DNA of 64,000 bases from an uncultured Candidatus Bathyarchaeia archaeon (lineage in GTDB: Archaea > Thermoproteota > Bathyarchaeia > Bathyarchaeales > Bathyarchaeaceae). Location of the stretch: the NCBI GenBank assembly GCA_964503065.1, contig CAZCYX010000001.1, positions 5,804-69,803 of the forward strand. Reading direction: 5' to 3'. A program made the position numbers and the translations under genes. The notes under the pieces were generated by a model. It saw nothing but the letters and a program-made list of their open reading frames with translations, ran no database searches and was not told the DNA's origin. Each line of letters opens with the position of its first letter. The stretch's first letter is position 1. Shown here one piece after another: positions 1-28,805 of the stretch.

Positions 1-1
1 C

Positions 2-1972: not shown

Positions 1973-2031
1973 CATTCAAGTGCGCGCTGTTTTTTTATGT
2001 ATCGAAAGGCTCACGATAAAATGCTTCTGTA

Positions 2032-2916: not shown

Positions 2917-2980
2917 GAAGAAACGTTAAATTTCCAGAATATATCAATTATCGTGTGTACACACAGTTGTTCTCGGAAGA

Positions 2981-3415: not shown

Positions 3416-3523
3416 AAAATTCTATCAGCGAGAAAGGATATTTAAGCAATCGCTATTGTTTTTTCTCGTTGTGCATACGCACAAATAATGAACTATTTTA
3501 AATGCGGTGTTGAAAATTAGGGT

Positions 3524-4243: not shown

Positions 4244-4323
4244 ACTGTCATATATGCATACAGTAAAAAATTAGAAGTTTATAAAAATTTAACCTGATTA
4301 TAACTTTACTGAATCTAAAGTGC

Positions 4324-5136
4324 GTGTGCAAGGGATTGTTGCAGATAAGAAAGGTCGCGTCAAAGAGCTCACTCATGGCGTGTAGAAGATTTTTAGCACA
4401 AGATCCGATTGCTAATGTTTTACCACTAGGGGATCTCTATTCGCCCCTTTTTCAGGTAAGCGATATCTACAGTGCTGTCAGAAGCAGCAAAGTTGTTGGT
4501 GTATGTGCTATTTACCGTGCGTTCTCAACGCCGAGCATAGTTTTCGGAACTGCCACGCAAAAGATTAAACAGGTTCTCATCAAGAAAGCGGTAAGTGAAA
4601 TCTCAAGCGAATTCATTTCACTTTGCGAACCAAGTGATGTCGCTTTGTTCAAGGAATATTCAACTATTTTGCACTCTCACCTAGAACAACAGATGATCGC
4701 TGATCCTCCAAAAAAGATTGAATGTAGTGACATTAAAGTTGAGAAAGTTGGCAAGAAGGAGCTGGAATTGCTGAACAGGTTTTATACTGATCATCATGCT
4801 GAGGCATGGGTTCCACTACAGTTTAAAGCTGGGCCATACTATTGTGTAAAGCACGAGGGTAAGATAGTTAGCGTCGCTGGGGTTCACTTGGTTACGCCTA
4901 AAATTGCTCAACTTGGGAACATCATTACAGATGAAGCTTATCGAAATCGTGGGTTCGCGACAGCATGCACAAATAGGTTAGCAGCAGATTTAGCTTCCAA
5001 GGGACGAATTATAAGTTTGTTCGTGAGGGTGGACAATGCACCTGCCATTCACGTGTATGAGAAGTTAGGTTTTTACAAAGAACGGGAGATCATGTTTCTG
5101 GTCATGCGAAAGAATGGCATATTATGGCGTTCGTAA
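4324..5136 (+). CDS. GNAT family N-acetyltransferase
   Basis: C-terminal acetyl-CoA binding signature (YRNRGFATACTNRLAADL) and a GNAT beta-bulge region (VRVDNAPAIHVYEKLGF). Confidence 0.65.
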   Translation: MCKGLLQIRKVASKSSLMACRRFLAQDPIANVLPLGDLYSPLFQVSDIYSAVRSSKVVGVCAIYRAFSTPSIVFGTATQKIKQVLIKKAVSEISSEFISLCEPSDVALFKEYSTILHSHLEQQMIADPPKKIECSDIKVEKVGKKELELLNRFYTDHHAEAWVPLQFKAGPYYCVKHEGKIVSVAGVHLVTPKIAQLGNIITDEAYRNRGFATACTNRLAADLASKGRIISLFVRVDNAPAIHVYEKLGFYKEREIMFLVMRKNGILWRS

Positions 5137-5172
5137 ACTGAACCGCGCGCGCATATTTCTGCCGTTCTTCTT

Positions 5173-6429
5173 TTAAGGGATTAGTGTGAGTGCTAGTCCA
5201 GTGGTTAATGGTATTGTTAGGTTGTCATCTATTGGAAGAGGAAGAAGTTCCACGAGTATTCCTATGGCAGCACTTATGAGCGCTTTTGTAGGATTTACAA
5301 ATAGGAGGGCTCCTAAAAAAGCAAATATGAAGCCGAAGGCTGAGCCTTCCACAGTCTTTCCCTTATTAAACGGGAGAACGGTTCTTCCTAAGGTTTTTCC
5401 GAAAATGGTGGCGAAACCGTCCCCCAGAGTGAGTATTGCAACAAGCACATAGCTGATGGGGGGATCGAAAAGCATGAGTGAAAGTATTATGCCTAAAGCA
5501 AAGAAGACTGGGGCTGTTGCGATTTCATAGAGTTCTGGTTTTATAGCGGTTTTCCAGGTTATGGTTGATGTTATGGGTAGGTTTATGCCTCTTATTCTTA
5601 GGAATTCCGATGTGATGTAAAGCACAGTGATGAGGAGTATTATGAATGAGACGATCTGGGGGTCGAGAAGGTACATACAAACGAAAGGAATTGAAAAACT
5701 TCCTATGTGGATTGTTTCGCGAAGCATCTCGTTTTTAGAGAGAGTTGAACGAGGTTTTTTAGGTGTGTCTTCAGTTAGGATTGGTAGCATTTCTGTGAGG
5801 TCTCCTTTGATGACGAAGTCAGATTTGGCGCTTACTAGGAAGTCTGGGTTGTAGCCAACTTTTATGTTGGAGAGGGGAAACATTGGCAAGTTGTTTCGGT
5901 CATCAACGATTATTGTGCAGTCTTTGGGTGACAAATTAGTGTCTTGGAGTATCTTCTTTAGGACTAGTGCTTTGCCGTCTGGTTTTATGACATCGCCCCA
6001 AATCTTGCCTGTTAAGCGACCGTTGACTGTTTCCAATTCTAGACCGAAGGCATAGTCCGCTTTTAGTGTGGTTGCTAAGTGTTGAATGAAGGGTGTTGGT
6101 AGTCCGGAACTGATGAGGGCTGTTGTGTGGCCTGTTTCTTTTAGTTTTTTGAAGAGTTCTTTTGCGTTTGGCATTAGGGGGACTTTTTTGTAGAGTTGGA
6201 AGAGGTCGTTGATTTTGAATCCTTTTAGAAGTTTGAAGATTTTTTTGAGGGCGGATCCGAGGGGTATCAGTCCTGTTTCGTATAATGTGCCGTAGAGAAG
6301 GATTTTGAGGAATCCGAGGGTGCCTAGTTTTCTTGCGGCTTCAAAGAGGAGGTAGCGTCTTTTGGGTATTAGTACGCCTTCGATGTCGAAGACGATTAAA
6401 CGTTTGTGTTTGGGTTTTGTGGTGGTCAA
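5173..6429 (-). CDS. fusion protein: HAD (SerB-like) phosphatase domain + polytopic CTP-transferase/dolichol-kinase-like membrane domain
   Basis: N-terminal HAD motif I (VFDIEGVL) and motif III region (IVDDRNN). The C-terminal ~190 aa are multi-TM with GDGFATIFGKTLGR, typical of the CdsA/dolichol kinase superfamily. TTG start. Confidence 0.55.
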   Translation of the reverse strand: MTTTKPKHKRLIVFDIEGVLIPKRRYLLFEAARKLGTLGFLKILLYGTLYETGLIPLGSALKKIFKLLKGFKINDLFQLYKKVPLMPNAKELFKKLKETGHTTALISSGLPTPFIQHLATTLKADYAFGLELETVNGRLTGKIWGDVIKPDGKALVLKKILQDTNLSPKDCTIIVDDRNNLPMFPLSNIKVGYNPDFLVSAKSDFVIKGDLTEMLPILTEDTPKKPRSTLSKNEMLRETIHIGSFSIPFVCMYLLDPQIVSFIILLITVLYITSEFLRIRGINLPITSTITWKTAIKPELYEIATAPVFFALGIILSLMLFDPPISYVLVAILTLGDGFATIFGKTLGRTVLPFNKGKTVEGSAFGFIFAFLGALLFVNPTKALISAAIGILVELLPLPIDDNLTIPLTTGLALTLIP

Positions 6430-6465
6430 TGGTGCTCCTCTTTTAGGAGAGTTTCTTTTCTTGAT

Positions 6466-6515
6466 TATAGTTTTTGTGTGTGCGTGTGTGAGGGTACCTC
6501 TCTAGAGGGGGGAGC
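6466..6515 (+). repeat. copy A of a conserved intergenic element (GT/GC alternating tract + ACCTCTCTAGAGGGGGG dyad/G-string)
   Basis: Sequence tttttgtgtgtgcgtgtgtgagggtacctctctagaggggggagc aligns with copies at 18296-18350 and 55270-55317, all in the same orientation. Confidence 0.8.
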
Positions 6516-6893
6516 TTAAAAAAAGAGAGAATTATTGTTATGGGAAAGATTATCCAGATCTCAAACAGATTGATTAATATGATCAAAGAAGCTGCAAGCA
6601 CTTCCAAAAATAACTGAAGGAGATAAGTCTGGTGTGCCCAAAGCGATCAGCAAGTAGGTCACTTGGAACTGAAAAAACCAGTGAGAAGCTCGAGGAATAG
6701 ATAAGATAAAACTTGCAATGAGAACAGATAATCCATATTCATTAATCAAATTCGGTAGAAGAGCAAGAGGAAGATTTGAATAACATGAAGCAATGTATGG
6801 GAAGTGCATAAGAAAAGCAGTCTACGTTTGAAATCCTGCTTAACCACAAATCCACCACAGCTGCGCGCGCATAATCCTCTATAGAGAGTCTCG

Positions 6894-9614
6894 CTAGGGG
6901 TACGTTTCTCCGTAGTGGCTGGCTACGAGGGCTATGTCTCTTATGTTGATTTTGCCGTCTGGCACGCCTATTGTGGGGCCTGTTAGGTCGCAGTTGGGCT
7001 CGTATCTGGGATCTGGATAAATTACGCCGAAGAGATTGGCCACTACTGCAATGTCTTTTATGTTGACTTTTCCATCTGGTATAAAATCCCAGACGTTCGG
7101 GGTCCCACCAGTTATGTCTCCCATCATTGCCACAATGATCCAGCCGTCAATGAAGGTGTTGTCCGTTGTGTTCGTCTCGTCTGGTAGCATAGTTGCATTA
7201 GCAGATATGGTGTAGTTGCCCTTAGCAAAGCCGGTGGTATCCCATGTGAAAGTTATGGTTATGCCAATGCCGCTTTCAATGGTGACGGAGCGTGATGCAA
7301 TTGAGTTGGCGTTGAGATGGATGGTGACATTGAAGGTTTCTGTATAGCTGCCGATGTTCATGGCGGTTACCCTAATGGTTGAAGAGTACCCTTGTCCAAC
7401 AACGGTTTTTGAGGTAACGTCCTTAATGGCGACATCGTGCCCTGGACTTAATTGTCTAAATATTGTGTGCAGAGTGTGATTTGTGTTCATTGTAATATTT
7501 ACTGGGTTAGGTATCCCTATGTTGACACTGTCGAGTTCCCAGTGGTCAAGATAGTAGCCAGTGTTTGGTAGGGCGGTGATGCTAGCCATTGTTCCCGACC
7601 AGTAGGTGTGTGTGCCAGGTGTGGGGTTGGTGGTTCCTCCGTCGGTCGTTGTGACGGTCAATGTATATTGTATCCGCGCAAAGGAAGCCTTCAATGTGCG
7701 GTCCGTGTTCATTGCCACCGTTATTGGGTTGTTTGTGTAGTTGTTGCCGTCAAGCTCCCAGTGATCAAAGTAGTAGTGAGTATTTGGGGTGGCTGTTACT
7801 GTGACTAGAGTTCCAGCCGTATGTGTGTAGGTTCCTGATGTTGGATTGGTTCTTCCTCCATTTGTGGCTGTGATGGTCAAAGTGTAGGTTGCGGTGAAGA
7901 CTGCATGTAACGTATGATTTGCGTTCATTGTTACTTTCATAGGGATAGTGGTTCCGATGTTGACACCATCGAGTTCCCAGTGGTCAAACAGGTAGCCAGC
8001 GCTTGGAGTGGCATTGACGGGAATGTTTTGTCCCTTCGAATGCGTGTAATTTCCAGGTGCAGGATTGGTTGTGCCGCCAGCGGTGGCCGTGATTGTTAAT
8101 ATGTACTTGGGCAGAGGAGGGTTTCCATAGGGGCTCATGAGGGGATAACGGTCTCGATTGCGCTCGTTAATAACATAGGGTGAATCGCCAATCCCATCAT
8201 CGTCTGCGTCCCATCCCAAATAGTCACTCCAGTAGTTTCCTCCAGAATGATAACCATCATCCCAGTCGTTCGAACCGATTGGTATCTGAATATGTATCTG
8301 CTTCGAGTTATTAATGAAATTGTTGTGAAATATTCTGTTGCCTATGACCCATTCAGTCGCCATCCACATACCCGCACTGTTCTGAATAATGTCATTTTCC
8401 TCAATAGTACAATCGGAACATACACCAGCAACCATTATACCATATAACGTATTGCTATTTATGTCATTTCCAACTATCTCAATCCCGCTTGAATCGTCGA
8501 CCCCTATTCCCATCGTATTGTTTGTTAATATATTGTTCTTCAACACCTCCCACATCGTATCTTCTAGGTAAATACCCGCAGCAGCACCAGCAACTGCAAG
8601 CCCAGTATTGTTTATGGCGACATTATTCATTAGAAGATTGTGGGATGAGTCAACTAGCTGGAAGCCGCCTTCTGCGTTGCAACTGACGTTGTTCCCAACT
8701 AGAATGTTATGCTCTGCAGCGTCTAAAAGTGGACCGTACATGTTGTACGTGGCTGTAACATCTCTCAACTCACAATCCGTCGAAAAGGCAATTGTTACCG
8801 CGTAAACGTTGCCAGTAACCGTTAAGTGTTCAACCTTTATTCCTGTGGAATTTACGATGTAGACGCAACCCACATCTGAGGGGATTGTCTCATCATGTCG
8901 ATTAATCCAGTAGTAGAGGGGTTTTCCGTTTATTGTATTCGAACTGTCAATGTCATGAAGGTAATAAGACAACGCGTAATGACCAATCTCAATGCTGTAC
9001 TTGTTGCCAACCATAATATTATCTCTCAGTGTATTCCCAGTTCCCCATTGCATATCGATAGCCACAAAATTGTCTATGATTTCATTGTTAGACAAGACGT
9101 TATAACTTGAAAACCACAAAAAAATACCGCATACGTTATTGTTCATCGCGGTGTTGTCCTTAAGGAAGTTGTATTGTGAGTCCGATATTCTGATACCATA
9201 TTCGCAGCTTGCAAGAACGTTGTTGGTTAGTGTAATGCTGCTAGAGTCGTATAACCAAATACCATATTCGAAATTCGAAATGTACATGTTTGCAACTGTT
9301 ACGCTGCTTCTTTCAGTAAGATCGATTCCCATTATGCTTCCGACAGTTCCTTGAAGCGCATAACCGTCTCCATCTATCGTTATACTGTCCTTTTCCACCA
9401 CTATTGTCTCATTAATGTCATCTGTGAAAATGTAGACATCACCAGTCCGTTGGATGGGCGCGCTTATAGGATCAACTGAACCGTCAGCTCTGATGTAGAT
9501 CGTTCCAACCGCTATAGCTGATTTGATGTTAAATGCCAATACTAACGTACCTATTAGAAGTAATGTCAGCATTATTCCAGAAACTGCTTTTCCATTCGTT
9601 TCTCCTTTCTCCAT
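6894..9614 (-). CDS. secreted multidomain protein: signal/TM anchor, right-handed beta-helix (PbH1/NosD-like), 3 tandem InlB-B-repeat-like domains, CARDB-like domain, C-terminal dockerin-like module
   Basis: N-terminal hydrophobic segment. Repeated N..I...N beta-helix rungs. Three ~75-aa repeats (Y.LT.T...GGTTNP.PG.YTH...FDHWELDG). C-terminal duplicated PDGK(V/I)NI(K/R)DIA motif. Confidence 0.8.
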   Translation of the reverse strand: MEKGETNGKAVSGIMLTLLLIGTLVLAFNIKSAIAVGTIYIRADGSVDPISAPIQRTGDVYIFTDDINETIVVEKDSITIDGDGYALQGTVGSIMGIDLTERSSVTVANMYISNFEYGIWLYDSSSITLTNNVLASCEYGIRISDSQYNFLKDNTAMNNNVCGIFLWFSSYNVLSNNEIIDNFVAIDMQWGTGNTLRDNIMVGNKYSIEIGHYALSYYLHDIDSSNTINGKPLYYWINRHDETIPSDVGCVYIVNSTGIKVEHLTVTGNVYAVTIAFSTDCELRDVTATYNMYGPLLDAAEHNILVGNNVSCNAEGGFQLVDSSHNLLMNNVAINNTGLAVAGAAAGIYLEDTMWEVLKNNILTNNTMGIGVDDSSGIEIVGNDINSNTLYGIMVAGVCSDCTIEENDIIQNSAGMWMATEWVIGNRIFHNNFINNSKQIHIQIPIGSNDWDDGYHSGGNYWSDYLGWDADDDGIGDSPYVINERNRDRYPLMSPYGNPPLPKYILTITATAGGTTNPAPGNYTHSKGQNIPVNATPSAGYLFDHWELDGVNIGTTIPMKVTMNANHTLHAVFTATYTLTITATNGGRTNPTSGTYTHTAGTLVTVTATPNTHYYFDHWELDGNNYTNNPITVAMNTDRTLKASFARIQYTLTVTTTDGGTTNPTPGTHTYWSGTMASITALPNTGYYLDHWELDSVNIGIPNPVNITMNTNHTLHTIFRQLSPGHDVAIKDVTSKTVVGQGYSSTIRVTAMNIGSYTETFNVTIHLNANSIASRSVTIESGIGITITFTWDTTGFAKGNYTISANATMLPDETNTTDNTFIDGWIIVAMMGDITGGTPNVWDFIPDGKVNIKDIAVVANLFGVIYPDPRYEPNCDLTGPTIGVPDGKINIRDIALVASHYGETYP
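7455..8110 (-). repeat. three tandem ~225-nt coding repeats (B-repeat-like domains) inside the 906-aa gene
   Basis: Protein-level repeats KYILTITATAGGTTNP..., TYTLTITATNGGRTNP... and QYTLTVTTTDGGTTNP... each end in HTL.A.F. Confidence 0.75.
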
Positions 9615-9773
9615 TCTACAAATATATAATTCATGTATTTAAGCCTTCCAAATATTCCATAAACGATTTCTAAGTACATCATCTATAGAATCGACTTGAA
9701 TTTCTGTTCTGACCCTTTTTAAACCCTTTCCGTGAGAGAACAAATTTTTTTCTCTTTAAGAAGTGTTTACTGC

Positions 9774-9920
9774 TTATTCTCTCTTTTTCTTTTGTTCTTT
9801 TCTCCGTTTCTCATCAATCGCCTCTCTAATCCACTCCGAAGGGTTAGAGACATCCCTAAGATACAGAGCCTGATCAATCCGCAAACGAACACCATAATGA
9901 ATCTTCTTCTTATTACTCAA
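9774..9920 (-). CDS. small ribbon-helix-helix (CopG/Arc-like) protein, 48 aa, not in the ORF track
   Basis: Own translation: (TTG)MSNKKKIHYGVRLRIDQALYLRDVSNPSEWIREAIDEKRRKEQKKKRE. A beta-strand-like GVRLRID is followed by helical SEWIREAIDE. A TAG stop sits directly upstream of the TTG. Same strand as, and 160 nt upstream of, the secreted beta-helix gene. Confidence 0.4.
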   Translation of the reverse strand: MSNKKKIHYGVRLRIDQALYLRDVSNPSEWIREAIDEKRRKEQKKKRE

Positions 9921-10102
9921 CTAAATCCAAACCAAAAAAGCTTCAACCCTCACAAAAATATCTTATGAATCCACAATCATAACCACCAATAACTGCAAAG
10001 TCTAAACAATTCAGCCTCACCCACACCTAATAATGAACCTTTCACTTACCCAAAAGAGAAAAATCATAAACTTTTATACCCTCGAAAACCCCCAACTAAT
10101 TA

Positions 10103-10422
10103 GGCGGTGGGTCTCAGGCGGGGGGCTAGGGGTCCCCTGAACCATAAACCCTCTACATGATGGGCCGAAATCCAAGACGAGGCGTCAAAGAACGTAAAGT
10201 CCCTCAGCCTTCTGACCATGAACATCCGTCCCTTACGGCTGGCGGTCACAGAGCAGCCTTCGTAGGAAGACTGTCAACTGGGTTAACCAGGCGAACCTGG
10301 CCAGGCCCGGGAGGGAGCAACCTAAACTTGGACGTTCAGCGCTTAAGGGGGTGCGGATACGAGTAAAGAGATTGAAGGGGCTTTGCGAAAACTGGACGTC
10401 GACTCTCGGTGATCCACCGCCC
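10103..10422 (+). ncRNA. ffs: signal recognition particle RNA (archaeal 7S/SRP RNA)
   Basis: The 5' GGCGGTGG pairs with the 3' CCACCGCC. The helix-8 signature CCAGGCCCGGGAGGGAGCAAC parallels the CAGGUCCGGAAGGAAGCAGC of E. coli 4.5S RNA. About 320 nt, GC-rich island in AT-rich DNA, followed by TTTT. Confidence 0.85.
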
Positions 10423-14616: not shown

Positions 14617-16993
14617 ATGAAGAAGATGTTCTGGCTCTTGGATGTTAATTATGAGGTGAAAGACCATAAACCAGAGATGTGGATTTGGGGCATTGATGAT
14701 GAAGACAAACGAATCCTTATCATTGACCGAAATTTTCTTCCTTACTTCTACTTGGTTGCAGAGCAGAAGGAAAACCCCCAACTGATAATAGAAACAATTA
14801 GGTCACATGAGGCGGATTATCCGTTAATCAAGAAATTAGAACCCACAAATCGAAGATTCTTTGGCAAACCTGTGAATGCGATTAAGGTTGTTTGCCAAGA
14901 TCCAAATGTTGTATCGAAATATGCGAGGTCTCTTAAAAAAGTTGAAGGCATCAAAAACTGTCTTGAAGATGCCATCCGCTATTCTATGCGTTATCTGATA
15001 GACAATAACGTTATTCCGTGCAGCTGGCACGAGGTAGAAGTTGAAGAGATAGAAAACAATCTGGAAGTGCAAGTTGACAAAGTATACCTCGCTAAAACAT
15101 CTCCAAGAACTATTGAAAAACCTGAAGTTCCCGAACTAAGAATCTTAGCCTTTTCAACAATCTCATACAGTCGTCAAGGCGCACCAAAGCCAGAAAGAAA
15201 TCCTGTTGTTATCATTTCAGTATGTACAAATGTTGGAGATGAGAAACAGTTTGTGGCGAAGGACTCAGATGACAAAACTGTGATTGAATTCTTCTTAAAG
15301 TATGTTCGTGGTTTTGATCCCGACATCATTGCTGGTTATGGCATCAACCGACAAGACTGGCCCTATCTCCTATCTCGATCTAAAAAATTGAGTGTCAAAC
15401 TTTCTGTGGATAGGGCGAATACTGAGCCTCACACAAGTGTTTATGGCCCACATATCCATTACTGGACGAGCAAACATGGACTTCTTCGATTTTGCAGATG
15501 AACTCCCTGAAGTGAAGATAAAGACTCTAGAAAACATAGCAGACTTTCTCGGCGTCGTGAAGATTGAGAAACGCACCTTAATCGAAGACATCGACTTCCC
15601 TAGCTATTGGGAGAATCCAGAAAAGCGTTCTACTTTCCTGAAGTTTTCCCGAGAAAACACTCAGTCAATAATGGGAATCACCAAAGCCATGTTAGATTTC
15701 GCCATGCAGTTGTCCAGTCTTGTTAGTTTACCTCTAGATCATGTAGGAACTGCAGCAATTGGCTTTAGGGTTGAATGGTATCTAATCAAAGAGGCATACA
15801 AAATTGGTGAACTTGTACCAAAAAGGATAGAACGCCCTTATATTCCCTATGTAGGCGCTATAGTTTTGAAACCCAAACCTGGGGTTCATGAAAACGTTGC
15901 TGTTCTCGATTTTAAGGCTATGTACCCTAACATTATGATAACTGAGAATCTTTCACCCGACACTTACGTTTCCCCATCAGAGCCTGAACCATTGTGTGGC
16001 GTAAACATTGCCCCAGAAGTGAAACATAGATTCCGCAAAGAACCAGCTGGCTTGTATAAAGAGGTACTGTCAAGCCTTATTGGCGTAAGAGATGAGATCC
16101 AACTGAAAATGAAGAAACTTGACCCAAAAACCCCTGAATACCGAGTCTTAGATGCCCGCCAAAAAGCTGTAAAAGTGATCACCAACGCTTCTTACGGTTA
16201 TACAGGGTGGATAGGCGCACGATGGTACATAAAACCTGTTGCAGAAGCAGCAACCGCATGGGGTCGCCACTCCATTTTATACACAATAGAGTTAGCAAAG
16301 AAAATTGGATTAGAAGTCATATATGGTGACACTGACAGCATTTTCGTGAAGTATGAACCCAACAAAGTCGAAAAACTTTCCACAATGATTACTGAGAAAT
16401 TTGAACTTGAGATAAAGCCTGATCAAATCTACGTCCGCATCTTATTCACAGAAGCCAAAAAAAAGTATTGCGGACTTTTGCCAGATGGACGCCTAGATAC
16501 GGTGGGTTTAGAAATGGTAAGGGGAGACTGGACGGAAGTAGCGAAGAACGTGCAGAAAAGAGTGCTGGAAATAATACTTAAGGAACAAACTCCACAGAAG
16601 GCAGCACAATTTGTAAGTCAATTTATCTCTGATCTAAGGGAAAAAACGGTTCCTTACAAGGATCTCGTTATATGGAAAACACTTACCAAACCAGTTGAAG
16701 AATACGCTGTTAAGGCTCCCCATGTTGAAGCCGCAAAAAAGCTAATGGAAGAAGGGTGGGAGTTATCGTTAGGCGATAAAATTGGCTATGTCATTGTTGT
16801 GGGGTCAGGGCGTTTATATGAAAAAGCTAAGCCATATGTTTTAGCTTCTTACGATGAGGTTGACATTGAATACTACGTGTCTAATCAGGTGGTGCCAGCT
16901 GCATCTCGAATTTTAATCCTATTCGGCATATCAAAAGATGCGTTACTGCCTTCTAAGACTCCAAAAACTCTCTCTGAGTTTGTAGGAAATTAA
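14617..16993 (+). pseudogene. polB: family B DNA polymerase, reading frame broken by one extra nt in a CCC run near 15445-15449 (true pseudogene, recoding or assembly error unresolved)
   Basis: Two overlapping ORFs (14617-15501 and 15392-16993). Deleting one C gives ...TEPHTSVYGHISITGRANMDFF..., matching the exo-domain hairpin of archaeal PolB. Polymerase motifs are intact: DFKAMYPN, KVITNASYGY, YGDTDS, KKKY. Confidence 0.85.
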
Positions 16994-18126: not shown

Positions 18127-18258
18127 TAATATTCACCTCAGTCAAGATTTAACCTCACTATCCTAATTATAGTGGTGCTGAGCCATAAATTAGTTTGCGT
18201 CTAGTTATACTTTACTATGCTCCTTTCCATATTGATAGACAACAAATGAGAGGTTCAG

Positions 18259-18300
18259 AGGTTTTAAGATGTGTTATTGATGTTAGTATTTTGACTCGTG
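18259..18300 (+). repeat. left copy of a ~42-nt direct repeat containing a BRE/TATA-like GGTTTTAAGAT box
   Basis: aggttttaagatgtgttattgatgttagtattttgactcgtg compared with aggttttaagatataattggtattagtatttttaactggtg at 18434-18474, about 78% identical by eye. Confidence 0.6.
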
Positions 18301-18350
18301 TTTGTTGTGCGTGTGCGTGTGTGAGAACCTCTCTATAGAGGGGGGGCGAG
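18296..18350 (+). repeat. copy B of the conserved intergenic element
   Basis: gtgtttgttgtgcgtgtgcgtgtgtgagaacctctctatagagggggggcgag. Confidence 0.8.
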
Positions 18351-18433
18351 ATGTGTGGTAAGGTTTAGGATTTTTTGGTTTGTTATCTCGGAGTTAATAG
18401 GTCGGTTTTCAGGGGTGATGCCTAAGGGGTGGA

Positions 18434-18474
18434 AGGTTTTAAGATATAATTGGTATTAGTATTTTTAACTGGTG
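18434..18474 (+). promoter_or_regulatory. right copy of the direct repeat; likely BRE/TATA promoter of the 18506 gene
   Basis: The TTTTAAGATATAAT box lies about 55-65 nt upstream of the TTG start at 18506. Confidence 0.45.
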
Positions 18475-18505
18475 TTAGTGGTATTATTATGGAGTAGGTG
18501 GATGT

Positions 18506-18964
18506 TTGAGTCGATCTAGGCTTGAGAGGGATGTTACTGGGGAGTATAACACTTTTCGAGTTTATCTTTTGATGCTTAGGGTGCAGGAGGCTTCTGCTAG
18601 AGACATTGCCTATCAGCTTGGATTCTCTAGTCCTGCTTTGGCGGTTCATCATCTTGAAAAGTTGAATAGTCTGGGGCTTGTTAGGAAAGATGAGTATGGT
18701 GTTTATCATGTTGTCCCTCAAAAGTTTGGGATGCTGAAGTTTTTCTTTGTCGTAAGAAAGTTTATTGTTCCAAGAAGTTTTTCTACGCTCTTTTGTACGG
18801 GGTTTTGGCCGTTTTTTTCGTTCCTTATGCTTTCTGGGGCAGTGAGGAATGTGGCGCTTTTGTTTTCGTTGTTGGGCTTTGGAATTCACTTCGTAGAGAC
18901 TATACAATTCTATAAGGTTATTCCAAAAACTACTGTTCAAGAAGTAGAACAGAATGTTCAATAA
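18506..18964 (+). CDS. membrane-anchored winged-helix (ArsR/MarR-like) protein
   Basis: wHTH pattern (ASARDIAYQLGFSSPALAVHHLEKLNSLGLVRKDEYGVYHV) followed by two hydrophobic segments. TTG start. Confidence 0.5.
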   Translation: MSRSRLERDVTGEYNTFRVYLLMLRVQEASARDIAYQLGFSSPALAVHHLEKLNSLGLVRKDEYGVYHVVPQKFGMLKFFFVVRKFIVPRSFSTLFCTGFWPFFSFLMLSGAVRNVALLFSLLGFGIHFVETIQFYKVIPKTTVQEVEQNVQ

Positions 18965-19080
18965 AATGATTAATATAGTTTGATTTAGTGGTATTATTTT
19001 GGAGGACAGAGGGGTTGATCTTGTCTCCTAAGCAGATGGCTGTTTTTTGTATGGCATCGGTGCTCCTTGGTTCATGAGCT

Positions 19081-19587
19081 GTGTGGGGGTTAAAGGCAGC
19101 AGGTTGGATGGAAGTGACCGCAGAGGGAGCTGCTGTAGTAGAAGCATCACAGTTTCCTTTGAAACTAACAATGATACTCAATAAAACAACATTTGAGGTT
19201 AATGAACCCGTGGGTATCCATTTCTTCTTAGAAAACATTGGAAATGAAACCTATGGTTTTTATTGGGCAGGCCTTTATGTCTACTTCAAAGTATACGATG
19301 AAAAAGGTTCTGGGGTGTATAATGAATATGAAGATGTGTTTACTCAAGTACTCCCTCGCACCGTTGAAATACCTCCGGGTTTAGGTCGCAGAGTTAACTG
19401 CACGTGGTACCAACACGGTAAATTGGTATATCAAGGCCTAGGTGAAGATCCACCCGCCTATTACAAAGAGGTTCCACCGGGTAGATACAAAATTGTTGGT
19501 TTCTATGACGATATCGGTTCCTATCACAATATTAGTCGCCGCTTTACTGTCGAGACCCCTCCCATAACAATAACCATCGTATCATGA
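19081..19587 (+). CDS. BsuPI-like (intracellular proteinase inhibitor fold) beta-sandwich protein
   Basis: Pattern FEVNEPVGIHFFLENIGNETYGFYW...FKVYDEKG...EIPPG...W...VPPGRYKIVGFY matches the BsuPI/CARDB-like signature. GTG start is uncertain. Confidence 0.45.
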   Translation: MWGLKAAGWMEVTAEGAAVVEASQFPLKLTMILNKTTFEVNEPVGIHFFLENIGNETYGFYWAGLYVYFKVYDEKGSGVYNEYEDVFTQVLPRTVEIPPGLGRRVNCTWYQHGKLVYQGLGEDPPAYYKEVPPGRYKIVGFYDDIGSYHNISRRFTVETPPITITIVS

Positions 19588-19876
19588 ATCCTTTGATATG
19601 GTTACTACCTTTTGGGATTCCTTCTAAAAAATTAAATTCTTATTCGCCTTTTACGATAAGGGACTCATGAGCACAACATTGCTTGGATGGGCAAACCTAA
19701 GAGCTATTCTAAGGCTTTGGCACTGCGAAACCCTATTGTTCGACTACTGGTCTGGGGACATACACTACGTTCAATATTTAGATTCCGCCCAAACCTCTTG
19801 CCAGCACATAGTAAAAGGTTTTAAAAACATTTTTGATCTAACACAGTGTAACAACTGATGGAGAGGATAAAAGAGC

Positions 19877-20152
19877 ATGTACCTTTGGATTGATGTGGCT
19901 CGTTTTCTGATAGGTTCTATTTTGTTTTTTCACGGCATCCGCGAATACTATATAAAGAAGATGAAGGTGTTTCTGTATTTTAGTTGCGGTTTCGCCCTTC
20001 TAGCGTTTTCAGATTTGCTCCAGTTGGTGGATCGACTTCTACTCAATGTTTTGTCAATGAAGATTCTCGCTCTGATAAGTTTAAGTCTCTATGCAGGCTT
20101 TGTGTTTCTAAGCATCGTGGCTTTGAAGAGTGTTAAAAAGTCTTCTGACTAA
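19877..20152 (+). CDS. small membrane protein (3 TM), unknown function
   Basis: 91 aa, hydrophobic, lying between the two inhibitor-like genes. Confidence 0.3.
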   Translation: MYLWIDVARFLIGSILFFHGIREYYIKKMKVFLYFSCGFALLAFSDLLQLVDRLLLNVLSMKILALISLSLYAGFVFLSIVALKSVKKSSD

Positions 20153-20169
20153 GAGGATTATTATAAAAG

Positions 20170-20751
20170 ATGTTGATAACGACTGTTCTAATCAATAGTA
20201 TTATAGGTTATTTAACTTATAATAGTAGGGGGTGGAAGATTATAGTCTCAGACAAAAATGTCACTCTGTTCTTGCTACTTGGAATTTTAGTGTTTGCTTC
20301 TTTTCAGATGCTGTCAAGTGGGATTGAAGATTTTCCCACTGAAGCTGAAACCATATACGATGTATTCAAACTTGCTGTAAAGCTTGAGAAGAGTGTGTTT
20401 GAGATAGGCGAGACCGTGCACATGAATATTACACTGGTTAATATAGGAGAAGAGAACGCGACAATTACCTTCGGAGGTGGAATAACTGGTCAAACCTGGT
20501 TCTGGCGTGTGTACGATGAGAATGACCGAATGGTTTTTTATTACAAGTATCTCATATCGCCGAGCGTATGGACAGAGGTAACCTTGCAGCCAGACCAGTT
20601 TATACGACATGAGCGTACATGGGATCAGATAGATACCAACACCGAGCAACAAGTGCCACCTGGAATCTACTGCATAATCGCCGCGGTAGGCTTCACATAC
20701 AAAGAAGAGTCGGTCCCACTTGAAACTCGAATAAAAATCGCCATAAAATAA
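20170..20751 (+). CDS. membrane-anchored BsuPI-like protein (paralog of 19081-19587)
   Basis: N-terminal TM segments, then FEIGETVHMNITLVNIGEENATITFGGG..WFWRVYDENDRMVF...LQPDQ...W...VPPGIYCIIA. Confidence 0.55.
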   Translation: MLITTVLINSIIGYLTYNSRGWKIIVSDKNVTLFLLLGILVFASFQMLSSGIEDFPTEAETIYDVFKLAVKLEKSVFEIGETVHMNITLVNIGEENATITFGGGITGQTWFWRVYDENDRMVFYYKYLISPSVWTEVTLQPDQFIRHERTWDQIDTNTEQQVPPGIYCIIAAVGFTYKEESVPLETRIKIAIK

Positions 20752-20765
20752 TAACAGGTGCAGAC

Positions 20766-23321
20766 TTGAGAAACGAATGGTCGATTATTTTCCTAATTAC
20801 GTTAGCTTTGACAGCTAGTACAACATCAACACGTGAAACATTCGCTTCTCAGACTCAGGAAAATCTTGTTGGGGCTAAGTTTAATCCACAATTTACCTAC
20901 GACTGGTTACGTACTCTCAGTGTTCAAAATCCAGAAGAGGTGGTCTCAGCGCTTGTTTGGCTTATTGAAGATGAAGAAAAAGTAGGGATGAACATGAGCC
21001 AGCTTAAACAGCACGCCGAAAAAGTGTTTACGGAGCAACATAGCGCAAAAATATGGTACATTGCTGAGGTCTTACCTTTCATTCACATAATGGCTATGGC
21101 ATCGGAAATTGAGAAAATAGCCACCTACGAGTTTGTCGACGAGATCAACTTAAATGGAGATTTTGTGCACGTACACCCATGTCTTAGTGTTAGTGTTCCG
21201 ACCATAAGAGCAAGGGATGTCTGGGACCTAGGGTATAATGGTTCTGGAAAAAGAATAGCTATAATCGACACAGGTATCAACCAGTCACATCCGGACCTTG
21301 ACGATCTGGACGACGACCCCTCCACATCCGATCCAAAGGTAATAGCGGAACAAGACTTTACTGGAGAGGGAATAACTGATGATATCGCTGGTAACTGGTC
21401 AGGGCACGGGACTCACTGCGCAGGAATCGCTGCAGGTACCGGGGCAGCATCGGGGGGTGTTTATAAGGGAGTGGCACCCGGGGCTTGGCTACTCGAAGCT
21501 AGAGTATACAACTCTACGGGAAAATGCGCAGATGTAAATTGGATTAGCGATGCGATAGACTGGGCAGTCTCCAACGATGCAGACGTAATAAGCTTTAGCC
21601 ACCAGATCACCTATTTCCATAGTTTTTGGGGATATCAGATAAGAACTGATGGCACGCGTCCACCAAGCCCGGCAGCAGATGAGGCTGTCGAACGGGGAAT
21701 CGTCTTTGTAGCATCATCAGGTCAATATGATGAGCCTTATAACCCAAATAATTACATAGCCGCTCCAGGCGACGCGTTTAACGTCATAACAGTTGGCGCA
21801 TCGAATGATAGCAACACACAAGACATAAATGATGACACCGTCCCCTGGTGGAGCAGTCGCGGCCCTACTGATGATGGTAGACCTAAACCAGACGTAGTAG
21901 CTCCAGGTGTTGAGATAATGTCAACTTGGGCGGGTTATGATTCAGGTAACTACTACGTACCTTGGACAGGTACTTCTATGTCTGTTCCTCATGTTGCTGG
22001 TGTTACTGCTTTGCTTTTGCAGGCTCATCCTGGCTGGACTCCAGGTATAGTGAAAAGTGTCATCATGAGAACAGCCCATCTAAACGACAACCTTCAAGCA
22101 GAGCCAGAAAGAGAAAATGCTCGGGGAAAGGGAATCGTTGACGCCGGAAGAGCAGTGACATGCCCAACCGACATACCTGCTAACCAGGCTGACACAAAGT
22201 ACGAAAACGGTGGGGGAATAGTCTACGAAGCAGAGGCACATCTTAACGGAACGTATAAGGTCATGGCCAGCGGTTCTTACTTCTGGCCTGCTTGGGCTGT
22301 GGCAACTCTCAAAAAAAGTTTCATCCCGGAGCGCGATATGATCAATCCAACATTCCTTTTCGGATTTAATGACACAGGAGAACTAGCTACACTTTATGGA
22401 ACTGCTCTTTTCAGCGCCGAACTGAACCTCTGGAACGGCACAAATGAATTGTTTGCGTATTCAGAAACAATCCATTACATGGCGGGAATCGGCGGCTACG
22501 ACACTGACTGCTTCCATGCCATAAGTTACGCGTATGACGATGTGTTGCTCGCAGAGCACTCTTACGACATCGAATATGGCTTCGGAGTCCTTGCGACTGC
22601 CTATACTGAAGATGGGAGTGGCTTCGCAGATTTCGTAGTTCAGGCATTATCGTTAAGTATAATAGACATAATCGGACCGGGAAACCCAAGCTTCGAAGAA
22701 AGACTCAAGTCAGTCTACGAACCAGCCTACTGGAACTGGTCAGATGTCGACAACGACTGGCGAGAACTGAAAGGCGACATCTGTGGACCACCAGGCATCA
22801 CTGGACCACCAGATGGAAAAGTCAACATCAGAGACATAAACAGGGTATACCAAGCCTGGGGCTCCTATCCAGGCCATCCAAAATGGGATCCAGACTGCGA
22901 CTTAAACGGCGACGACAAAGTGAACATAAGAGACATAGGCATTGTCGTCAGCGAAAATGGTAAACATACCGAAAGCGTTGATGGTGCATACTCATGGTAT
23001 ACGAGCGGAAACGGCACTTATCACATGGATCAGTGGCTCTGCGACCACGATGTAAACGCCCTAAAAGGCCAGCAAGTCACATTCTCCTTCAGGTTTAAAC
23101 CACACGAAATGGGAAACAACGCCACAGCACAAATCTGTTACATCACAGAAAATGATCAGCAAACAACGGTTAGCGGTAACTGGGTTTACGCAACAGAAAA
23201 TTGGCATAACGCCAACGTCACAACTATGTTACCAGCAAACACAGTCGCCATCAAAGTCATCATCCACCTCATAAACAACTTCCAAACATGGATAGACAAA
23301 ACATCCATAGTAACTTCATAG
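20766..23321 (+). CDS. secreted subtilisin-like serine protease (S8) with internal dockerin-like module and C-terminal jelly-roll-like domain
   Basis: Catalytic triad motifs AIIDTGI, HGTHCAG and GTSMSVPHVAG. Signal-like N-terminus. DLNGDDKVNIRDI EF-hand-type repeat. Confidence 0.85.
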   Translation: MRNEWSIIFLITLALTASTTSTRETFASQTQENLVGAKFNPQFTYDWLRTLSVQNPEEVVSALVWLIEDEEKVGMNMSQLKQHAEKVFTEQHSAKIWYIAEVLPFIHIMAMASEIEKIATYEFVDEINLNGDFVHVHPCLSVSVPTIRARDVWDLGYNGSGKRIAIIDTGINQSHPDLDDLDDDPSTSDPKVIAEQDFTGEGITDDIAGNWSGHGTHCAGIAAGTGAASGGVYKGVAPGAWLLEARVYNSTGKCADVNWISDAIDWAVSNDADVISFSHQITYFHSFWGYQIRTDGTRPPSPAADEAVERGIVFVASSGQYDEPYNPNNYIAAPGDAFNVITVGASNDSNTQDINDDTVPWWSSRGPTDDGRPKPDVVAPGVEIMSTWAGYDSGNYYVPWTGTSMSVPHVAGVTALLLQAHPGWTPGIVKSVIMRTAHLNDNLQAEPERENARGKGIVDAGRAVTCPTDIPANQADTKYENGGGIVYEAEAHLNGTYKVMASGSYFWPAWAVATLKKSFIPERDMINPTFLFGFNDTGELATLYGTALFSAELNLWNGTNELFAYSETIHYMAGIGGYDTDCFHAISYAYDDVLLAEHSYDIEYGFGVLATAYTEDGSGFADFVVQALSLSIIDIIGPGNPSFEERLKSVYEPAYWNWSDVDNDWRELKGDICGPPGITGPPDGKVNIRDINRVYQAWGSYPGHPKWDPDCDLNGDDKVNIRDIGIVVSENGKHTESVDGAYSWYTSGNGTYHMDQWLCDHDVNALKGQQVTFSFRFKPHEMGNNATAQICYITENDQQTTVSGNWVYATENWHNANVTTMLPANTVAIKVIIHLINNFQTWIDKTSIVTS

Positions 23322-23351
23322 AGTTCTGTGCACGCTAGAGGTTTGTTTCTT

Positions 23352-25956: not shown

Positions 25957-26736
25957 TCAAAAAACAACTGGTGCTACAATGAATGCACATCCAGCGTAGT
26001 CCCTTCCAATTTCCGTGGCTCTGAACAGAAACGGATGCGGTTTTTCTTTCAAGGCAAACACGTGGGCTTCTCCGAAATTATTTTCCAAAAACTGATATAC
26101 AACTCCCAAAATCTGAATTGAAAGATAATATTCTAAGTCTGGGTGGCTGAAGACTAATTCTTTAACTTTTTTTCCTTTTTTCCCACACTCTTTTAGGCTT
26201 AATTCGAAGTCTTCGATTGTGATTGGCTCGTATTGTGCGAAAGACTCTTTTTTGCAATCCTCTTGTGCAATGATACCTATTACTCTTCTTTCGTCCGTAA
26301 CAAGATCAATTCCATGGAACTTTGAAGTAGCCTTTTGCATTTTCGTTCCTGTCTCCTCCTCAAACTGTTCTGCAAAACTGAATATACTCATACGATCACC
26401 TCGCAATGTTAGTTCAAGTTTATTCCAAATTTGGTCAACATCTTTGACGAACCTTGCGATCTCCAGTCCCTTCTTCGTGAGTTTGTAGACAATGCCGTCT
26501 TTGGCAATTACAGAGTTCCCTAGCAGAAAGTTGAGATGATAGTTGAAGGTTCCTGTGCTAGTTAAATGCCTCACATACTCTGCAGAATCCAGTAAGTCGG
26601 AATAAGCAGCCTTTCCAGCTTCATTCAAACGTCTAACAATACTATTCCTAGTCGGGTCAACAATAATAGAGAACACGTCACTCTTCTTCAAAGATGTCAC
26701 CAACAAGTAAATCAATAAGTGGGTCGCATTTAGCAT
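25957..26736 (-). CDS. winged-helix (ArsR-like) domain protein with uncharacterised C-terminal domain
   Basis: DPTRNSIVRRLNEAG.AAYSDLL...FNYHLNFLL....DGIVYKLTKKG pattern. Start codon uncertain. Confidence 0.45.
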   Translation of the reverse strand: MLNATHLLIYLLVTSLKKSDVFSIIVDPTRNSIVRRLNEAGKAAYSDLLDSAEYVRHLTSTGTFNYHLNFLLGNSVIAKDGIVYKLTKKGLEIARFVKDVDQIWNKLELTLRGDRMSIFSFAEQFEEETGTKMQKATSKFHGIDLVTDERRVIGIIAQEDCKKESFAQYEPITIEDFELSLKECGKKGKKVKELVFSHPDLEYYLSIQILGVVYQFLENNFGEAHVFALKEKPHPFLFRATEIGRDYAGCAFIVAPVVF

Positions 26737-27104
26737 TTTTTGACTATAGTTTCGTCTTCATCCAAACTAAGAAAGCCTTGAATTTTTCATATAGTTTTCA
26801 ATTTTTATTAGTGGTGAACCCTAATAGGACTCAAGACAACACCTGTTTCAAAATCAGACGAGTAAAATTAAGGCCTGCATGCTATCCTATGCCGCTTCTC
26901 AGCCGAGTATCAGGACTACCCCATTTTTTTGGGTTGGACTATTGAAAAATTCAATCTTCTTTCCAGTACTTACACAAAACAATTTGATGCGATTTGATTT
27001 CCTTTATCTTCGCATCTTTACACTCATATGGTGACGAGAAAGGGCATGTTTTTTCATAATGTACAGATTCTCTATTACTGCAACGCATTCTTTCGCCAAT
27101 TAAT

Positions 27105-28805
27105 TTACGAAGTCATAGACTTATTTGACCTTTTCTCCTTCATTTTCAAACGGTGGATTTCTTCCAGATCGATCTCAAATGTGCTTACAGGATTTTCTAG
27201 TTCAAAGTTGTTGAGGACTTGTGGGTGAATTTCACCTAAGAACCCTCTTCTCTCACGTTTGATACTGAGTTTTGCTACTCTTCCCTCTAGAAAACTTGGG
27301 TGTTCAACTTCTTTTATCTTATAATTCGTGATGTCAAGGTTGGTTAGCAACGCCTCCACAAACGATTTTATCTCAGTGTAGTTGGCTGTGGGATGAGACG
27401 AAACCCCTGCCACATGAAGTCGTCTCTCACTACGAGTCTCCTTCTTCTCATTAACCACTATTATGTCCGAAACTTCAAAGATTCGTTGAGGATAACTTTC
27501 ATGCCTATTACTGACAAGGTTCTCAATTAAGCCAGGCAACAAATTTTCTCTGACTATCGAATATTCCGTCGAGACTGGATTCGCAAGTCTCACTACCCTC
27601 CCAATCTCGGTTCTCATTTTCCTATATTGAGTATCTTCGTTGGTTAGAATGAAGTTCATAGCCTCTGTAAAACCAAGCCCAATCATGATCTGCCGAACAT
27701 GACTCGCTACCTTATTTACTCTGTGTTGCTTACCAGTTGTTACTGTTGCAGGTCTAGTTGGCTTCAACTTATAATAGCCGTAACCAATCGCAACTTCCTC
27801 AACCAAGTCAACCTCATGCAACACGTCAATTCGATAAGCAGGAATCGAGACCTCCCAAACATTCTTGTCTATGCTTTTTGCATCCAATCTACATTTCCTA
27901 AGACATTTCACAACATTATCCTTTGAAAGTCTAAGTCCCAACAACTCATTCGCATAACCTACCCTTAACTTCATTTTCTGTGGCGTTAAGTCAGGAGAGA
28001 CAACATTATGATCTGAATACTTGACTTCTACAGTCTCGATGATGCCCCCCATATCTGCCAAAGCAGTTACCAAAACATTCAGGCTTCTAATAACCGCGTT
28101 CAGGTCGGTTCCAGTCACATCCAAGAATAAATTCTCTGTGTAATTATCCACTCGAGTCAGCTCCCCATTAATAATCGGCGGCATAGAAAGAACCCTATCT
28201 CCCTTATCAATGAGCAGCGGATACCTTGAAGCCCAATCTACGAGGTGGCGGTATCCAATACCCTTCTCATGCTTTTCCAGAATCTCTCGAAGACTCATCT
28301 TCTCTGTTTTGTCAAGGGGAACAAACCGAACACCATCAGGTTCACCAGTTGTGTAAGTGAACGGAGGTTCCACGCTGTCTAGATTGTGCACTCCAATAGA
28401 AGCTTTTTTTCTATCTCTACCTATCCCCCAGTGAAGGTCTTCTTGCATCTCCATAAGCTCTCGCACAGCTTCGCTGTCTAGCTTTATCTTACGTACCACA
28501 ACAGCTAACATGAAAGGCCTAACTTCAACTACCGTCGAATCTATCTTCAAAACAATATCGCCTTTTTTCACATCATACTTCGGCAGTCCAGTCTCCCATC
28601 CCATAAGCCCTTTAAAAGCCCTAGCAATTCCCGCATAACTGCAGAAGTCAACTCGGTTCGGATTGAACTCAACCTTCACATAATCCGGTCCAACGTCTTT
28701 TATGTCAAGACCAAGCCATGGAAGCCACTTAGCCATCTCCTCAACTGTAAGAGTTCGATTAATGAAAGAACAAAATCTATCTCTATCCAAGATTATTGCA
28801 GGCAA
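27105..28805 (-). CDS. pheT: phenylalanine--tRNA ligase beta subunit (archaeal type)
   Basis: 566 aa with B3/4 and B5 region patterns. Overlaps the pheS stop by 13 nt (operon). Confidence 0.88.
   Translation of the reverse strand: MPAIILDRDRFCSFINRTLTVEEMAKWLPWLGLDIKDVGPDYVKVEFNPNRVDFCSYAGIARAFKGLMGWETGLPKYDVKKGDIVLKIDSTVVEVRPFMLAVVVRKIKLDSEAVRELMEMQEDLHWGIGRDRKKASIGVHNLDSVEPPFTYTTGEPDGVRFVPLDKTEKMSLREILEKHEKGIGYRHLVDWASRYPLLIDKGDRVLSMPPIINGELTRVDNYTENLFLDVTGTDLNAVIRSLNVLVTALADMGGIIETVEVKYSDHNVVSPDLTPQKMKLRVGYANELLGLRLSKDNVVKCLRKCRLDAKSIDKNVWEVSIPAYRIDVLHEVDLVEEVAIGYGYYKLKPTRPATVTTGKQHRVNKVASHVRQIMIGLGFTEAMNFILTNEDTQYRKMRTEIGRVVRLANPVSTEYSIVRENLLPGLIENLVSNRHESYPQRIFEVSDIIVVNEKKETRSERRLHVAGVSSHPTANYTEIKSFVEALLTNLDITNYKIKEVEHPSFLEGRVAKLSIKRERRGFLGEIHPQVLNNFELENPVSTFEIDLEEIHRLKMKEKRSNKSMTS

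Follow-up and report, generated by a model that had tools for sequence, protein, structure and literature searches.

A mosaic extragenic hairpin repeat at islet edges and rearrangement breakpoints in one lineage of Bathyarchaeia

Background

Repetitive extragenic palindromic (REP) elements are known substrates of rearrangement and are defined by a conserved GTAG or CGTC tag (PMC3733652). The REP literature that we found treats bacterial phyla, and our full-text searches returned no description of such repeats in Bathyarchaeia, which are among the most abundant archaea of anoxic sediments and of which none is in pure culture. Here we analyse a 64-kb stretch of DNA from an uncultured Candidatus Bathyarchaeia archaeon (contig CAZCYX010000001.1, positions 5,804 to 69,803; this whole stretch is called the window below) and, within it, three copies of a short hairpin-forming element that we call the head. 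Heads are the conserved part of a modular, extragenic hairpin repeat of one lineage, which persists at orthologous sites while the adjacent spacer diverges; they coincide with islet edges, with synteny breaks and with one reciprocal exchange that maps within the head core. We consider it probable, with some reserve, that the element is the head module of a mosaic, lineage-restricted, extragenic hairpin repeat of the kind represented by REPs, bacterial interspersed mosaic elements (BIMEs) and BOX elements, and that it acts on DNA as a recombination hotspot.

Results

Three heads at the edges of accessory-gene islets

Direct reading of the 64-kb window places three heads, all on the plus strand, that have in common a (GT/GC)n tract, GAG, the dyad CCTCTC(TA)TAGAGGGG and a G-run. 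They are listed here together with a possible degenerate fourth copy.

6473-6514, plus strand: head A (solo), with a T-run, the alternating tract at 6476-6490, GAG, the dyad CCTCTCTAGAGGGG at 6497-6510 and a G-run to 6512; copy A reads tttttGTGTGTGCGTGTGTGAGGGTACCTCTCTAGAGGGGGGAG
18306-18349, plus strand: head B (solo), with the tract at 18307-18323, the dyad CCTCTCTATAGAGGGG at 18328-18343 and a G7 run, to 18346; copy B reads tttgttGTGCGTGTGCGTGTGTGAGAACCTCTCTATAGAGGGGGGG
55274-55317, plus strand: head C, with the tract at 55279-55289, the dyad at 55296-55311 carrying one G>C change (TATAGACGGGG) and a G-run at 55309-55313; copy C reads tttttGTGTGCGTGTGAGAGAACCTCTCTATAGACGGGGGAGAG
6860-6900, plus strand: possible degenerate fourth head (tentative), with the tract GCGCGCGC, then CCTCTATAGAGAG at 6876-6888, then ..GGGG

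An initial annotation of the window had reported three similar elements in the same orientation, and these are confirmed at their places: a 32-mer of head B matches head C with two mismatches, where dinucleotide-preserving shuffles expect 0.00 matches, and a 17-mer of the dyad, at up to three mismatches, recovers all three copies against 0.14 expected. The profile scores of A, B and C (E = 1e-13 to 6e-11) are partly circular, the profile having been built with these three copies. The same profile finds no further full head in the window; it matches the remnant at 6860-6900 weakly (E = 0.04). That remnant contains a 13-nt inverted match to head A (repeat I1) and occupies the distal end of the non-coding DNA in islet A, abutting the stop of the NosD-like gene; the scarcity of CTCTATAGAG in other Bathyarchaeia (see below) also speaks for it. 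The shared dyad that had been described is indeed present in all three copies; in copy A it is 2 nt shorter. Head B is identical in an independent assembly (L001; labels of this form denote the loci or contigs compared).

All three heads stand at the conserved-gene edge of islets of accessory genes that are absent or different in close relatives, and at all three sites the G-run end of the head points toward the variable cargo. This placement at islet boundaries had been missed by the initial annotation, as had the composite of about 270 nt to which copy C contributes the first module.

6515-9790: islet A, between head A and a conserved small gene plus the signal recognition particle (SRP) RNA, with about 380 nt of non-coding DNA and a 906-aa NosD/beta-helix protein (Pfam)
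18256-23348: islet B, 5.1 kb between the dnaG leader and the stop of a 136-aa Toprim gene
55256-59012: islet C, 3.8 kb between the ribK promoter and the acetyltransferase stop, with head-L2-tail (see below) and a 1096-aa TPR protein

At site A the head stands 40-60 nt upstream of the HAD-fusion gene in six of the six genomes examined, whose M50 proteases are 80-100% identical. It is orthologous in L153, L154 and L155 and has a variant form in L151/L152, and it has been kept while promoter and untranslated region (UTR) diverged and while the cargo came to differ from genome to genome: L154 has no cargo genes and about 130 nt of non-coding DNA, and other genes occupy the islet in L151/L152, in L153 and in L155. 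On its far side islet A is bounded by a stretch at 9790-10104 (minus strand), beside the SRP RNA at 10105-10419, which L154 has conserved; our guess is that it is a small minus-strand gene.

Islet B comprises head B, an ArsR-like helix-turn-helix (HTH) gene, a 168-aa open reading frame (ORF), a BsuPI-like inhibitor and a subtilase with a dockerin domain. The head lies about 50 nt past the conserved dnaG leader. In L156 the site is empty (the Toprim gene stop, a conserved leader of 128 nt and dnaG follow one another with no head), and in L153 it holds another insert (HpaB), again headless. The leader itself (18127-18255, minus strand; about 125 nt of non-coding DNA) is about 93% identical between the window and L153/L156, a level about equal to that of the DnaG protein (91-94% amino-acid identity), and its homology stops abruptly at the 5' edge. 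The leader may represent a long 5' UTR or else some regulatory element.

Site C is likewise empty and headless in L142, L143 and L145, where the acetyltransferase gene, 66 nt and ribK stand side by side, and L141 carries a variant head at the same ribK-proximal junction with different cargo. Outgroups carry other neighbours upstream of ribK and give no polarity for this site. The TATA region of ribK (TATACATA..., up to about 19 nt) is found at both junctions of islet C (55236-55255 and about 59012-59040), and this doubling looks like a target duplication from insertion of the islet.

The head as a module of a mosaic repeat

The family is built from three modules, namely a head, one of two linkers (L1, L2) and a tail (about 160-190 nt), each of which may stand alone. 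In the aligned heads the 5' edge is GT-rich and slightly fuzzy, and the 3' edge is sharp after GGGG(A)GAG. The alternating purine-pyrimidine tract (12-17 nt) is Z-DNA-prone; it is followed by a strand-asymmetric palindrome, CCTCTC-TATA-GAGGGG, closed on the plus strand by a T.G pair. The span from GTGTGAG to GGGG is nearly constant (24-27 nt), and within it the dyad centre varies between TATA, TA, TAGA and a shifted register, by insertion or deletion of TA and by T>G change, with a stem of four to seven pairs kept throughout. The T.G pair is usual in the variant stems as well, where the other strand would have a C.A mismatch. Because the spacing at the dyad centre is variable, a hairpin or cruciform fits better than a dimeric double-strand binding site. 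The head variants that we call H' have a GTCT-rich 5' half, and orthologous copies anchored by proteins vary more than do copies from metagenomes.

What follows the head belongs to a few recurrent sequence classes. L1 is ATAAAATTATTTTTT and then a CT-rich run; L2 is GAGACAGAGAC and then a short hairpin or a second TATAGAGGGG; and the tail, present in many loci, ends in ..GTTGATAAC..TTTTCAAGATTG. Copies A and B of the window are solo heads, and composite C (55274-55547) is head-L2-tail; its linker and tail, and one headless tail elsewhere in the window, are as follows.

55318-55358, plus strand: linker L2 of composite C (GAGACAGAGACGGGTATAGAGGGGT...; repeat I2), with the second TATAGAGGGG at 55329-55338
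55359-55547, plus strand: tail of composite C, ..CTCTCTGTTTGAAAA..TTTCATCAACTGC..GCTGTCTGATTTTGGAA..GGGTTCTGTT..TTTGATAAA..TTTTCAAGA, nhmmer E = 6e-34
26793-26873, minus strand: partial solo tail, headless, nhmmer E = 4e-10, profile positions 59-141

The second TATAGAGGGG in composite C is complementary in sequence to the head dyad's left arm, and L2 also follows heads in L019, L023, L038, L043, L052, L056 and others. The tail of C, which matches the profile over about 155 nt within a conserved stretch of 160-190 nt, was aligned with 18 other tails (mean column identity 63%). The solo tail lies between pheT (27105-28805) and a winged-HTH gene (25957-26736). Across loci we saw head-L1-tail, head-L2-tail, solo heads, solo tails, a duplicated L1 (L046) and a tail-head-tail tandem (L055). 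In two related contigs (L007 at about 1400-1560 and L058 at about 340-500) a head-L1-tail stands directly upstream of a long tRNA-like gene (GCCGGGATGGCAGAGCGGT...TTCAAATCCCCTTCCCGGCGCCA), so the repeat can adjoin RNA genes as well as protein genes. The likeness of ..CTCTATAGAGGGGGAGA to phage promoters of the T7/T3 type we take to be a coincidence, the upstream AT-rich part being absent.

Breakpoints at heads

One link between heads and rearrangement comes from two metagenome samples. In Ga0315314_1000006, one head joins flanks U1 and D1 at about 201.7 kb (plus strand) and a second joins U2 and D2 at about 112.0 kb (minus strand); in sample Ga0315312, the combinations are U1-head-D2 and U2-head-D1, on separate contigs. 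The U and D flanks of the two samples are 94-100% identical over at least 1.5 kb. This reciprocal exchange of flanks is most simply explained if two heads in opposite orientation bounded a segment of about 90 kb that was inverted; the distance is seen in Ga0315314 only. The length of the GT tract follows flank U and the base immediately after GAGGGG follows flank D, which places the crossover inside the 25-nt core. Mis-assembly is unlikely, because the shared identity covers only about 38 nt, less than the expected largest assembly k-mer, and because both reciprocal products exist.

Orthologous loci were compared as well. In eight groups of orthologues (among them L019/L020/L051/L054; L013/L036 and L013/L035; L011/L029; L002/L004; L039/L047; L017/L038/L042), homology of 77-94% over up to 3 kb reaches the head and ends at its 3' end, with nothing in common beyond it. 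One and the same orthologous head may be followed, depending on the genome, by L2-tail, by L1-tail, by an L2 variant or by unique DNA.

These comparisons also bear on a rival reading, in which the composite is a non-autonomous mobile element, resembling miniature inverted-repeat transposable elements (MITEs) or palindrome-associated transposable elements (PATEs), that inserts into intergenic DNA, the solo heads being decayed copies and the rearrangements a by-product of many repeats. Composites that occupy the entire spacer between convergent genes, the presence or absence of the head at orthologous sites B and C, the apparent target duplication of 8-19 nt at site C and the duplicated L1 of L046 would all be expected of such an element. 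The composite nevertheless lacks terminal inverted repeats, and its two ends carry no hairpins that match each other; copies within one contig are old and divergent, as the tail column identity given above indicates; heads persist at orthologous sites across the clade; the duplication at site C flanks a gene-bearing islet of 3.8 kb and not the repeat; and no transposase was seen in the annotated clade loci or beside heads. We regard insertion of this kind as unlikely. A MITE in the strict sense was rejected on the missing terminal inverted repeats, the varying size and module content and the fact that the sole duplication flanks the islet. An 11-nt inverted repeat around composite C, considered as an element end, proved to be the TATA-like boxes of two promoters.

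Gene context of heads

Each window copy had been described as lying upstream of a minus-strand gene, and this is correct: about 44 nt separate head A from the TTG start of the HAD-fusion gene (6429), about 180 nt separate head B from the ATG of dnaG (18126) and about 65 nt separate head C from the ATG of ribK (55209). The A-run plus TATA box said to follow on the reverse strand ('CACACAAAAACTATAAT') exists at copy A; at copy C the corresponding string is CACACAAAAACTCCAAAA, and a TATA-like box comes about 20 nt further on.

We then surveyed the context of about 55 non-redundant heads by calling genes as longest ORFs around them. On the left, 23 heads have a co-oriented neighbour and 25 a divergent one; on the right, 20 have a co-oriented neighbour and 28 an opposite one; and all four gene configurations are present (11, 11, 8 and 7). 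Every non-redundant copy examined lies between called ORFs or at the very end of one. About half of the heads begin no more than about 18 nt before or after a co-oriented gene's stop codon, and some lie between convergent genes; where the left gene is divergent, the head is mostly 24-115 nt upstream of its start, just past the core promoter. The flanking genes are housekeeping genes (acetyl-CoA synthetase, ketopantoate reductase, M24 peptidase and others). Two heads in one locus were found only in L021 and L035, 1.5 and 3 kb apart with genes in between.

This absence of any preference in orientation or position makes a gene-specific operator or promoter role untenable, and the proposal that the HAD fusion, dnaG and ribK form a regulon, with the element as their operator or upstream promoter element, does not survive the wider sample, in which gene context and orientation are arbitrary.

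A further rival reading is that the head is the site of a sequence-specific DNA-binding protein of the host (a global regulator, a chromatin or domain-boundary factor or a protein of the Orc1/Cdc6 type), with islets adjoining it for unrelated reasons. A core of about 40 nt kept at orthologous sites while the adjacent spacer diverges is what a binding site would give, as are the constant distance of 24-27 nt from GTGTGAG to GGGG that palindrome and flanking boxes maintain, the position of three of the three window copies upstream of divergent promoters and the combination of a dyad with a G-string, as in an origin recognition box. Set against these points, the two half-sites are 0 or 2 nt apart at the dyad centre, a variation that hairpins tolerate and that proteins binding double strands as dimers usually do not; many copies stand where the ends of convergent genes meet; copies are dispersed with no clustering around an origin; and no candidate protein was identified. 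We judge a binding site of this sort very unlikely. Origin recognition boxes, which combine a dyad with a G-string, cluster in several copies about an AT-rich unwinding element beside orc1/cdc6. The window copies have dyad and G-run and are 12 and 37 kb apart beside unrelated genes, and an origin recognition box was rejected.

RNA and coding tests

The suggestion that the hairpin is favoured on the plus strand holds (-7 to -8.4 kcal/mol, against -4.2 to -6.6 kcal/mol on the minus strand). Head hairpins of either strand do not differ significantly from shuffles, and the whole composite folds no better than shuffles either (z from +0.4 to -1.5 across head and composite folds). A scan of the window at the gathering thresholds of Rfam 15 returned only the SRP RNA and one tRNA, and a permissive scan of 55200-55700 gave only chance-level matches (E of at least 1.5), so a known RNA family was rejected for the window and for the region of composite C. 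For 19 tails the RNAalifold consensus is -2.1 kcal/mol with eight pairs and weak covariation; with a consensus fold this negligible and single-sequence folds no better than shuffles, tail and composite are not taken as structured RNA. By eye on the alignments, tail and linker show no boxes of a C/D-box or H/ACA small RNA, and indels break the reading frame of any small ORF there.

These results weigh on the reading in which the head works as RNA, either as a small RNA or as a 3' or 5' UTR hairpin that stabilises or terminates messages, as has been proposed for many bacterial REPs. Several features would suit it: the T.G (U.G) pair that improves the plus-strand fold, the many heads that start close to a co-oriented stop codon, the T-runs before the head and in L1 after it, and the G.U-rich helices possible in the tail. 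The other half of the heads, though, point away from a divergent gene, and the lack of orientation bias is unlike what is expected of a cis-acting mRNA element; the L2 variants imply incompatible folds; and the hairpin has no T-run directly after it. With many copies also lacking room for a promoter, and with no Rfam match and no significant fold or covariation, the small RNA offered by the initial annotation is not sustained, and we hold an RNA role in general to be quite unlikely.

Distribution and copy number

The window is archaeal by its SRP RNA and its intron-containing tRNA, and its DnaG is 70-78% identical to DnaG of the 80 best-matching Bathyarchaeia species representatives in GTDB. 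A strict head pattern, GTGTGAG-N(0-6)-ACCTCTCTA-N(0-2)-GASGGG, matches 59 loci in JGI and ENA metagenome contigs (some of them long contigs with several copies), has no match in the GTDB species representatives and has no match in IMG/VR, on which ground a viral or protospacer origin was rejected. Profiles of head and tail find neither module in 1.3 Mb around dnaG of 80 other Bathyarchaeia and nothing in the nearest outgroup ribK loci; three weak matches that might have been distant tail homologues in other Bathyarchaeia fall in apparent coding sequence, by eye, and were rejected as spurious. By protein searches, the clade around the window organism has RibK at least 87%, DnaG at least 88% and M50 protease at least 80% identical, and relatives outside it have RibK at most 83%, DnaG at most 82% and M50 protease at most 59%. 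On these searches the family is restricted to a genus-level clade of Bathyarchaeia.

In clade loci fetched through their proteins, and hence unbiased for the repeat, there is about one head per 20-25 kb; copy number per genome was extrapolated from about 230 kb of clade DNA. The 10-mer CTCTATAGAG occurs 2.4-3.1 times per 100 kb in the clade against 0.08 times per 100 kb in other Bathyarchaeia, a difference of about 30-fold. With dozens of additional copies in relatives, the miniature repeat family that had been listed among the candidates is the one that the data bear out. Its Z-DNA-prone tract and hairpin are real properties of the sequence and are retained in our explanation; as a whole, the interpretation first given to the element is partly supported.

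Discussion

How heads may act

We infer that the head acts on DNA and is neither a gene-specific operator nor a stand-alone RNA gene. The alternating tract, the palindrome and the G-run are features of non-B DNA and are consistent with fragility or with recognition. In the mechanism that we propose for the recombination hotspot, the hairpin or cruciform together with the Z-prone tract would make the head a preferred crossover site, and exchange from head to head would then shuffle the DNA on the G-run side. Such exchange might proceed by homologous recombination on 25-40 nt of identity or through a recombinase that recognises single-stranded hairpins.

Several points weigh against our explanation. 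Variable islets that have no head are common in these genomes (L142, L143 and L145 provide examples), and the association of heads with breakpoints could come in part from high general gene turnover. Heads may arrive as the end of incoming DNA and not promote exchange, the empty alleles of site C being headless. That the metagenome copies are nearly identical is in part a consequence of searching with an exact pattern, and the copy number was extrapolated from about 230 kb. Finally, neither the gene annotation of about 190 kb of clade DNA nor the surroundings of heads show a recombinase, transposase or RAYT-like gene (RAYT, REP-associated tyrosine transposase), so an enzyme-driven mechanism is conjecture.

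One specific form of that conjecture is that heads are the cis sites of a hitherto undescribed archaeal recombination system, in which a hairpin-recognising recombinase encoded elsewhere swaps the G-run-side DNA of any two heads. We entertain it as a possibility, and a doubtful one. Were it true, heads would be docking points for swapping accessory islets (secreted proteases, surface proteins and others) and for inverting segments, a dispersed functional counterpart of integron attC or of REP-RAYT chemistry.

Whatever drives the exchange, heads touch the question of how Bathyarchaeia acquire and shed genes for the extracellular enzymes by which their ecology is defined. The head is a practical marker of variable regions and rearrangements in metagenome-assembled genomes and a candidate recombination hotspot or site. 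It also carries a warning, in that repeats of this type are misread as regulons if one window alone is seen.

Other features of the window and its relatives

The family-B DNA polymerase gene of the window (polB) is split into overlapping ORFs in different frames (14617-15501 and 15392-16993), with the frame switch at 15440-15470 (..TSVYG|H.SITGRAN..); in relatives it encodes one protein of 791-792 aa. The split is either a real frameshift or pseudogene or an assembly error of one base. At 51819-51916 (minus strand) lies a 98-nt tRNA (Rfam, 49.6 bits) that ARAGORN missed and that presumably has an archaeal intron; L145 has an insertion with primase and HD domains at the intergenic position of this tRNA. 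In L142, 13599-14420 is a free-standing homing-endonuclease-like gene (LAGLIDADG/HTH_38) between the TP_methylase gene and the next conserved gene, a further headless indel of the neighbourhood, seen in this one relative. In L154 (Ga0315314_1000003), the genes that normally precede the M50 protease gene are replaced, over positions 1-9600, by about 9.5 kb of short ORFs that match almost nothing in Pfam apart from a weak hit to DUF2116; this could be an integrated element or provirus.

Comparison with known systems

Integron attC sites, the ends of IS200/IS605 elements and archaeal PATEs, hairpin recombination sites that operate as folded single strands, resemble the head in being strand-asymmetric imperfect palindromes with cargo that starts directly on one side and differs among genomes. 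Heads differ from attC sites in being single and scattered: there are no cassette arrays, no integrase annotated in the loci read, no R''/L''-L'/R' boxes, and the far ends of islets carry no second site apart from the doubtful remnant at 6860-6900. They differ from IS200/IS605, whose derivatives have related subterminal hairpins at both ends, in having no adjacent TnpA or TnpB gene and tail hairpins unrelated to the head dyad. Heads were assigned to neither group. With no tnpB, tnpA, OrfB or Y1 family in the annotated loci, a TnpB omega-RNA or a PATE was also rejected for the tail.

The composite is like pneumococcal BOX (boxA-boxB-boxC), ERIC and Correia (CREE) repeats in its length of 200-300 nt, its intergenic position, its non-coding nature and its number (about 100 copies per genome by extrapolation), and it shares with repeats of the BIME and BOX type an order of modules (head, linker, tail) that are optional or duplicated. 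It has no sequence relationship to BOX, ERIC or Correia; Correia and ERIC repeats have terminal inverted repeats and the composite has none, and, unlike in BOX-like repeats, the head module alone is conserved and associated with recombination.

Together with BOX, the closest analogues are REPs and BIMEs. Like the latter two, the head is a short (about 40 nt), imperfect, extragenic palindrome in many dispersed copies (59 loci by the strict pattern), with G.T pairs in the stem, a frequent position just past stop codons, mosaics with other short motifs, vertical persistence and a probable role as a recombination substrate. In place of the GTAG or CGTC tag of REPs and REPINs (paired REPs), the aligned copies have GTGAG and 1-7 nt before the stem; and whereas inverted dimers of about 100 nt predominate among REPINs, heads are almost always singletons. 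The REPIN/RAYT system includes a single-copy gene for a Y1 (IS200-like) transposase with the repeats on its flanks; no gene of such a Pfam family was seen in the roughly 190 kb of clade loci that were annotated, nor beside heads. Heads further differ from REPs in being archaeal and in having a stem flanked by a long GT/GC tract and a G-run, and their tie to islet edges and synteny breaks is much tighter than has been reported for REPs. The family would thus be one of very few mosaic repeat systems of the REP/BIME kind described in archaea.

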